From: Candidatus Saccharimonadota bacterium
Lineage (GTDB): Bacteria > Patescibacteriota > Gracilibacteria > Absconditabacterales > Absconditicoccaceae
DNA: 32,000 nucleotides
Assembly (NCBI GenBank): GCA_000503875.1
Contig: CP006913.1
Coordinates: 120,001 to 152,000, forward strand
Direction of reading: 5' to 3'
The position numbers and the translations under genes were made by a program. How positions within the stretch are numbered: position 1 is the first letter of the stretch; each line of letters starts with the position of its first letter. Under the pieces are notes generated by a model that was not told where the DNA came from, made no database searches, and saw nothing but the letters and a program-made list of their open reading frames with translations. This document shows positions 8,087 through 9,580 of this stretch, in pieces.

Positions 8087-9580
<1,494 letters not shown>

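Follow-up and report, generated by a model that had tools for sequence, protein, structure and literature searches.

Bacteria of the SR1/Absconditabacteria and Gracilibacteria clade probably initiate translation without Shine-Dalgarno (SD) pairing, and the drift of the anti-SD core at the end of their 16S rRNA is best read as decay under relaxed selection and not as one half of a co-evolved pair, a reading to which we give a probability of about 0.85. The starting point was a stretch of 32,000 nucleotides from one such genome (hereafter the window, meaning the whole stretch of DNA that was analysed), in which the core reads CCACC and the genes lack SD motifs; since the anti-SD core is among the most conserved short sequences of bacteria, a clade in which it has decayed represents a natural experiment in SD-free translation. 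The CCACC tail and the scarcity of SD motifs have already been published for this organism or for a near-identical one, as SR1 RAAC1_SR1_1, with the tail GACCACCACCCTAAA, appears among newly identified organisms without a canonical anti-SD (PMC10783764, PLoS One 2024). Table 4 of that work gives 2% of SD genes for SR1 RAAC1 and 7% for SR1 Aalborg (tail AATCACCTTTGTACA), within a class of SD-scarce genomes lacking CCUCC. The window has the same tail GACCACCACCCTAAA and the same phenotype as SR1 RAAC1 (0 of 28 starts here), and its tail, its low pairing and the reproducibility in relatives are those of the same class (class iv of PMC10783764). The variants compared across the clade appear to extend beyond that work, as two SR1 genomes were treated there in tables, whereas 58 species are compared here, with 15 different cores, two species that keep CCUCC and no complementarity of genes to their own tails. 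What the wider comparison adds is the decay throughout the clade (56 of the 58 species) and the lack of compensation in the mRNAs.

Judged from reading frames and protein alignments, the genes of the window use genetic code 25, in which UGA is read as glycine. The content of open reading frames, which are short under the standard code, rises from 3303 to 11214 codons in the window when TGA is read as sense, and TGA falls on conserved glycines at three of four sites in phosphoglycerate mutase and at four clearly aligned sites in inorganic pyrophosphatase, and never at tryptophan. Code 25 has been assigned to SR1/Absconditabacteria and Gracilibacteria (PMC9297842), and the guess of the first-pass annotation that the DNA belongs to SR1/Gracilibacteria was right, as the UGA codons at conserved glycines of these two enzymes support. 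The enolase of the window is found with identical sequence on a contig of the sediment metagenome PRJNA167727 and on GCA_003543185.1. TGA sense codons are unevenly spread, with seven in gene 9723-10271 and 16 in gene 27300-28604, for example, and none in the enolase gene (19883-21139) or in genes 10352-11113, 26326-27267, 14174-14485 and 23347-23916.

The 16S rRNA gene (8085..9580, + strand) is full length (Rfam RF00177, 1370 bits, model positions 1-1533) and stands last in a 23S-5S-16S operon. Over its last 37 nt, helix 45 (9544..9567, +; E. coli 1506-1529) is made of CAUCCCUACG-GGAA-CGUGGGGAUA, with a GGAA loop and C1506/A1529 at the closing position, and the terminus reads GGGGAUA-GACCACCACCCUA. 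The 3' tail GACCACCACCCUA (9568..9580, +; E. coli 1530-1542) aligns without gaps to Rfam SSU_rRNA_bacteria and differs from the consensus GAUCACCUCCUUu, in E. coli numbering, by U1532C (9570), U1537A (9575) and U1540C (9578), of which U1537A is the change that turns the core into a degenerate CCACC (9573..9577, +). Both the sequence and the Rfam alignment confirm the earlier reading of CCACC in place of CCUCC, which was exact. Every position of helix 45 and of the tail flanks has its homologous counterpart in E. coli, and the tail is of equal length; the differences are that U1537 is an A and that SD motifs are absent.

The gene sits in an apparently intact operon on one strand, with the 23S rRNA gene first (4873..7807, +; Rfam RF02541, 2477 bits), then the 5S rRNA gene (7915..8031, +; Rfam RF00001, 70.6 bits) and the 16S rRNA gene, which begins 54 nt after 5S. 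A candidate sigma-70-type promoter, TTGAAA-N16-TATAAC (4754..4781, +), can be read from the sequence before the 23S gene, and a near-identical promoter-like site, cTTGAAAt-N16-TACAAC, begins near 18024, before the tRNA-His gene. A predicted pre-16S processing stem flanks the 16S gene with 33-36 nt per strand, in such a way that its 5' strand in the leader (8047..8082, +) pairs with a 3' strand in the trailer (9617..9649, +) that begins 36 nt past the homology-predicted 16S end (folding of the two strands, MFE -46.3 kcal/mol, z = -6.4). The operon is closed by an intrinsic-terminator-like hairpin followed by a T run (9668..9698, +).

A CCACC core could also come from a sequencing or assembly error, from a pseudogene, or from a gene that is not the working one because another rrs copy carries CCUCC, and only a single rRNA operon is seen within the 32-kb window. 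Against this, the same tail is present in three other GTDB species (L029, L063 and L093), in 12 independent contigs of different metagenome samples (L124-L135; 16S 88-98% identical to that of the window) and in the published RAAC1 entry. Moreover, helix 45 shows compensatory changes among the 58 species, with pair 1515/1520 being G-C in 31 and C-G in 27, and pair 1511/1524 being C-G in 56 and U-A in two. Because the gene is full length and high scoring, shows covariation in helix 45, has a predicted processing stem, a promoter-like site and a terminator-like hairpin, and repeats its tail in relatives, we regard a pseudogene or an assembly error as very unlikely, and the artefact as a whole as extremely improbable.

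These relatives were obtained by scanning GTDB species genomes once with a 16S signature near position 1390, which gave 57 species sharing the helix-45 type (58 with the window), labelled SR1, Absconditabacteria or Absconditabacteriales, Gracilibacteria or Vampirococcus lugosii, or belonging to mislabelled bins. The comparison of 16S 3' ends across SR1/Gracilibacteria that had been suggested beforehand was made on this set. At positions 1535-1539 the most frequent core is CCAUU (21 species), followed by CCAUC (10 species), CCACC and CCUUU (four species each), CCACU and CCUCU (three each), CCUCC (two, the L087 and L080 lineages), CUUUU, CUAUU and UUAUC (two each) and four further cores found in one species each. 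The most variable positions are 1537-1539, and G1530, A1531, C1532, A1534, C1540, U1541 and A1542 are nearly fixed in the 58 species. In a neighbour-joining tree from which helix 45 and the tail had been left out, tail types track the 16S phylogeny: A1537 is found in all relatives at least 87% identical to the window, and U1537 types, among them the rare CCUCC, on the deeper branches. Since tail types follow phylogeny and U1537, CCUCC included, is found on the deeper branches, the comparison indicates repeated decay from an ancestral CCUCC. CCACC remains unchanged over around 12% of 16S divergence and the flanks of the tail are conserved, so that the tail as a whole is not neutral and may have another role. 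The order of events suggested is that the use of SD was lost first and the core decayed later.

The absence of SD motifs was studied in around 32 kb of the organism's own genome, 8-kb blocks of the relatives and the 12 metagenome contigs, gene starts in the relatives being crude (the first AUG of long open reading frames). None of the 28 window starts has GGAG, GAGG, AGGA, GGTG or GTGG at -20..-1. Mean duplex energies at these starts were -0.60 kcal/mol with the canonical tail and -0.11 with the observed one, no stronger than those of shuffles (-0.85 and -0.38, respectively), and regions upstream of internal ATGs of the window pair more strongly with both tails (-3.05 and -2.18). Start regions also fold less stably (-5.15 vs -7.21 kcal/mol, p = 3e-11), and their G content is 10.5% at -20..-1 vs 18.5% in coding sequence. 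The same calling of open reading frames on DPANN archaeal loci yielded an SD-like peak at -15..-11, so the pipeline does detect SD motifs; in GC-rich Dormibacterota loci, the shuffle control was uninformative, with -4.50 vs -4.35 for mononucleotide shuffles. The earlier claim that starts lack SD motifs was borne out by these counts and energies, and that of SD-independent initiation is supported by the window and by two larger sets of 78 and 142 genes described below.

The only SD-like leader of the window is AGGAAGG at 23001-23007, before a lysine-rich open reading frame of 37 codons (23013-23126, MSSERKKMPIPLKKSQEDILPKSICVGKKKKEKNKKK), where it had been pointed out as the sole purine-rich element. 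The frame has a perfect TTGACA-N16-TATAAT match upstream (22957-22984) and a strong terminator hairpin after it, at around 23133-23160. This single case in around 29 genes is compatible with chance. A search for a hidden RNA gene in the intergenic region 22900-23400 gave only sub-threshold chance matches in Rfam, with no family.

If the altered core were used in a co-evolved pair, genes should carry GGUGG-type sites, and the stable inheritance of CCACC in a sub-clade with 88-98% 16S identity could indeed mean selection. Where the contig has a CCACC-type 16S (78 genes), however, there was no SD-type signal either, GGUGG and GGUG were absent from -25..-1 and GUGG occurred once, when around 16 occurrences of GGUGG would be expected if one fifth of the genes used such a site. 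Pairing of these genes with the tail (-0.72) was weaker than that of shuffles (-1.01 +/- 0.16), and 6% of them reach -4.4 kcal/mol or stronger, a share below the shuffle mean. The same holds beyond the CCACC group, since in 142 genes of the 57 related species the pairing with the own tail (-1.52) equalled that of shuffles (-1.62 +/- 0.11) and that with the tails of other species (-1.41 +/- 0.08). The leaders are, in addition, poor in G. We therefore consider a co-evolved pair highly improbable, and of the two options that the first-pass annotation had left side by side, a co-evolved or a degenerated anti-SD, the data favour the degenerated one, as there is no GGUGG, own-tail pairing is at the level of shuffles and the relatives have many different cores. 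In the small sample of five genes from the two lineages that keep CCUCC, L087 and L080, none has an SD motif (three of them adjoin the L087 16S gene).

Pairing might instead be shifted, with the mature 16S end lying elsewhere and a terminal CUAAA or a longer 3' extension pairing with a UUUA box that we found upstream of start codons (see below). C1540-U1541-A1542-A1543 are conserved in 49-57 of the 58 species and are complementary to UUUAG, AUAAAAUUU occurs in the window at 5-13 nt beyond the predicted end, and loss of YbeY has been reported for the class Gracilibacteria, in which these lineages are placed. However, the sequence beyond 1543 is unconserved, even among species with the CCACC tail, and adding the extension of the window gave no excess of pairing (-2.30 vs -2.62 +/- 0.29 for shuffles). 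A G follows UUUA in only 10% of the boxes, which leaves four A-U pairs, and a position around -22 is far beyond the usual SD spacing. The UUUA box is not usefully complementary to the tail, and shifted pairing is in our opinion distinctly unlikely. The particular pairing of AUAAAAUUU 3' of 16S with AAUUUUUAU-like upstream boxes was also discarded, given the unconserved extension and a pairing energy that does not exceed that of shuffles. Conservation collapses from position 1544 on (entropy of 1.5-1.7 bits in the 58 relatives), and since it stops after 1543, this suggests that the mature 16S 3' end would lie near the canonical position.

The absence of SD motifs would equally be expected if the mRNAs began directly with the AUG, as happens in many Actinobacteria, Deinococcus and archaea, and AUG is in fact the first usable start codon for all called genes. 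Promoter positions argue against such leaderless initiation. In strong sigma-70 matches (10 or more of 12 positions), the -10 element ends 26-40 nt before the AUG and never closer, TTGAC peaks at -65..-55, and TATAnT and TAnAAT are enriched at -45..-30 and not around -10, where a -10 element centred some 10 nt upstream of the start is the mark of a leaderless genome. The predicted 5' UTRs are around 20-33 nt long, and genes inside operons, too, lack SD motifs. Leaderless initiation is therefore an improbable explanation.

What many start regions do have in common is a UUUA box at a nearly fixed distance. In the window, TTTA begins at -24..-20 in 19 of 28 genes and at -26..-19 in 21 of 28 (p about 2e-14, background 0.12), and when window and relatives are pooled, 86 of 170 genes have it starting at -25..-19 (background 0.106, p about 1e-38), with a T-rich stretch after it. 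Of the 78 genes of the CCACC group, 51 carry the box, which is also seen in Gracilibacteria and in a lineage that keeps CCUCC (relatives L006-L135). In the pooled profile, T is dominant at -25..-14 (0.42-0.56) and A makes up 0.29-0.44 at -12..-1, with no sharp peak. In DPANN archaeal loci, analysed in the same way, the TTTA peak is of TATA type and lies at -30..-26, unlike the box at -22. An example is the box at 29696..29699 (+), 21 nt upstream of the AUG of the phosphoglycerate mutase gene (29717), and further boxes are found at 28694-28697 and 31246-31249. Genes 10352-11113 and 26326-27267, which are among the TGA-free ones, lack the box and have long A-rich leaders behind promoter matches of 11 out of 12.

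The UUUA box probably lies in the mRNA, soon after the predicted transcription start, and is less likely to be a -10 element, because it is found inside operons, downstream of sigma-70 matches, and co-occurs with strong promoters at an ordinary rate (11 of 20 vs 75 of 150). In 17 of 24 tight same-strand junctions it falls inside the upstream coding sequence, as is the case for the box at 18434..18437 (+), which precedes the AUG at 18454 by 20 nt and lies inside the overlapping upstream gene 18198-18461, for that at 23902..23905 (+), 22 nt upstream of the AUG of an FtsJ-family methyltransferase gene (23924) and inside gene 23347-23916, and for that at 12111..12114 (-), at a distance of 23 nt from the downstream AUG of gene 11243-12091 and inside gene 12096-12404. 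The box at 13424..13427 (-), which comes 21 nt before the AUG of gene 12507-13406, is preceded by a sigma-70 match of 11 out of 12 (TTGACA-N17-TATACT, 13466-13438) and, being downstream of it, is predicted to lie in the 5' UTR. A function of the box as promoter -10 was considered and is disfavoured by these junctions, by the strong promoters upstream and by the canonical TTGAAA-N16-TAnAAC form of the rRNA and tRNA promoters.

Taken together with the previous data, a scheme of SD-free initiation can be proposed. Once selection for SD pairing had gone, the pairing core at 1535-1539 would drift, mostly by C-to-U and U-to-A changes as expected for a genome of around 31% G+C, and the tail flanks (GAC..., ...CUAA) and helix 45 would stay fixed, CCACC being one stable state of decay in the sub-clade with 88-98% 16S identity. 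Starts would be chosen through G-poor, weakly structured, U/A-rich leaders and recognition of the AUG, and bS1 may assist by binding the U-rich UUUA box centred around 22 nt upstream. The box would sit in the 5' UTR or, in operons, in the end of the upstream gene, at a reach beyond SD-type pairing with rRNA. Tentatively, and at somewhat less than even odds, this U-rich box at a fixed -24..-20 may take over from the SD in the clade in which UGA encodes glycine, where it would recruit or position the 30S subunit, with bS1 as the most plausible mediator; a promoter-related role of the box is somewhat less likely than a translational one. If the translational role is true, the UUUA box would be a new model of ribosome recruitment without rRNA pairing, and could allow better prediction of gene starts in code-25 genomes and phages. 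We found no description of such a box in the searchable literature.

The whole apparatus around the SD helix may have been abandoned in the clade. Absconditabacteria, Gracilibacteria and Peregrinibacteria often do without protein bS21 (PMC9297842), and Gracilibacteria are reported to have lost YbeY and to carry a glycine in place of N119 of uS11, the residue that in E. coli, once modified by YbeY, anchors bS21 beside the SD helix (bioRxiv 10.64898/2026.08.26.747336). It is through these components that the SD helix is stabilised in E. coli. The decay of the core fits these reports of a commonly missing bS21 and a lost YbeY. In the searchable literature, PMC10783764 and PMC9297842 alone bear on SD motifs, ribosome-binding sites (RBS) or 5' UTRs of Absconditabacteria or Gracilibacteria, and PMC10746230 and PMC6851277 hold nothing on SD, RBS or 5' UTR.

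Several other bacteria have moved away from SD pairing in different ways. Most Bacteroidota keep CCUCC, hidden by bS21, bS18 and bS6; initiation is SD-independent, as in Flavobacterium johnsoniae, and an A-rich pattern near the AUG has been described for Flavobacterium. The dominant positional signal in the clade studied here is a U-rich UUUA box at -24..-20. Bacteroidia and Flavobacteriia (PMC3155529) are also SD-less genome-wide, with A/U-rich, weakly structured leaders and an AUG start; in the present clade, however, it is the core that carries mutations, and bS21 has been reported as commonly missing (PMC9297842). In Parcubacteria, a different branch of the CPR, CCTCCT is likewise often undetectable (48% detection), and the loss of the anti-SD is associated with that of uL1, the tails of SR1/Gracilibacteria not being highlighted in that work (PMC9297842). 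Carsonella, Hodgkinia, Nasuia and Mycoplasma haemocanis (PMC10783764, Table 4) share with this clade AT-rich small genomes, few SD genes and a decayed CCUCC, but these endosymbionts and hemoplasmas belong to unrelated lineages, and no upstream box at a fixed distance was reported for them in the literature examined.

Other features of the rRNA operon were observed along the way. The 23S-5S-16S order was published in 2014 for three SR1 genomes, RAAC1 among them (PMC4192840), and is clade-wide, being extended here to all relatives in which the 8-kb block covers the operon, around 30 species in number and including Vampirococcus and Gracilibacteria-labelled ones (L007, L008, L014, L015, L027, L038, L042, L046-L048, L050, L057, L070, L077, L087, L091, L094, L098, L107, L108, L111, L114 and others). 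At the position that closes helix 45 (9544/9567; E. coli 1506/1529), the window and 27 of the 58 relatives have a C/A mismatch, the remaining ones having U-A (16 species) or U-G (15 species). Soon after the 16S 3' end, an ACYUAWA motif (often AACUUAUAA) is present at 9582-9591 of the window and in 16 of the 58 species, vs 2.7 +/- 1.5 in shuffles, lying at most 45 nt after the tail in L006, L008, L028, L045, L057, L071, L082, L093, L107, L130 and others; it could be a processing signal or the promoter of the next gene.

The scan also returned altered tails in other lineages. Roizmanbacteria-type loci (L018, L026, L105 and L122) have the tail GGAUCAUCUCCUUUC with the core UCUCC, and 0 of 17 crude gene calls, a very small sample, had an SD-like 4-mer at -16..-6. 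In Nanoarchaeota (L009, L012, L032, L036, L079, L084, L116 and L121; Nanopusillus, Nanobdella and Nanobsidianus) the 16S ends in GGAUCUAGUU..., with no CCUCC, the loss of the anti-SD in Nanopusillus being mentioned in PMC10783764, and other DPANN archaea from the same scan keep GGAUCACCUCCU.
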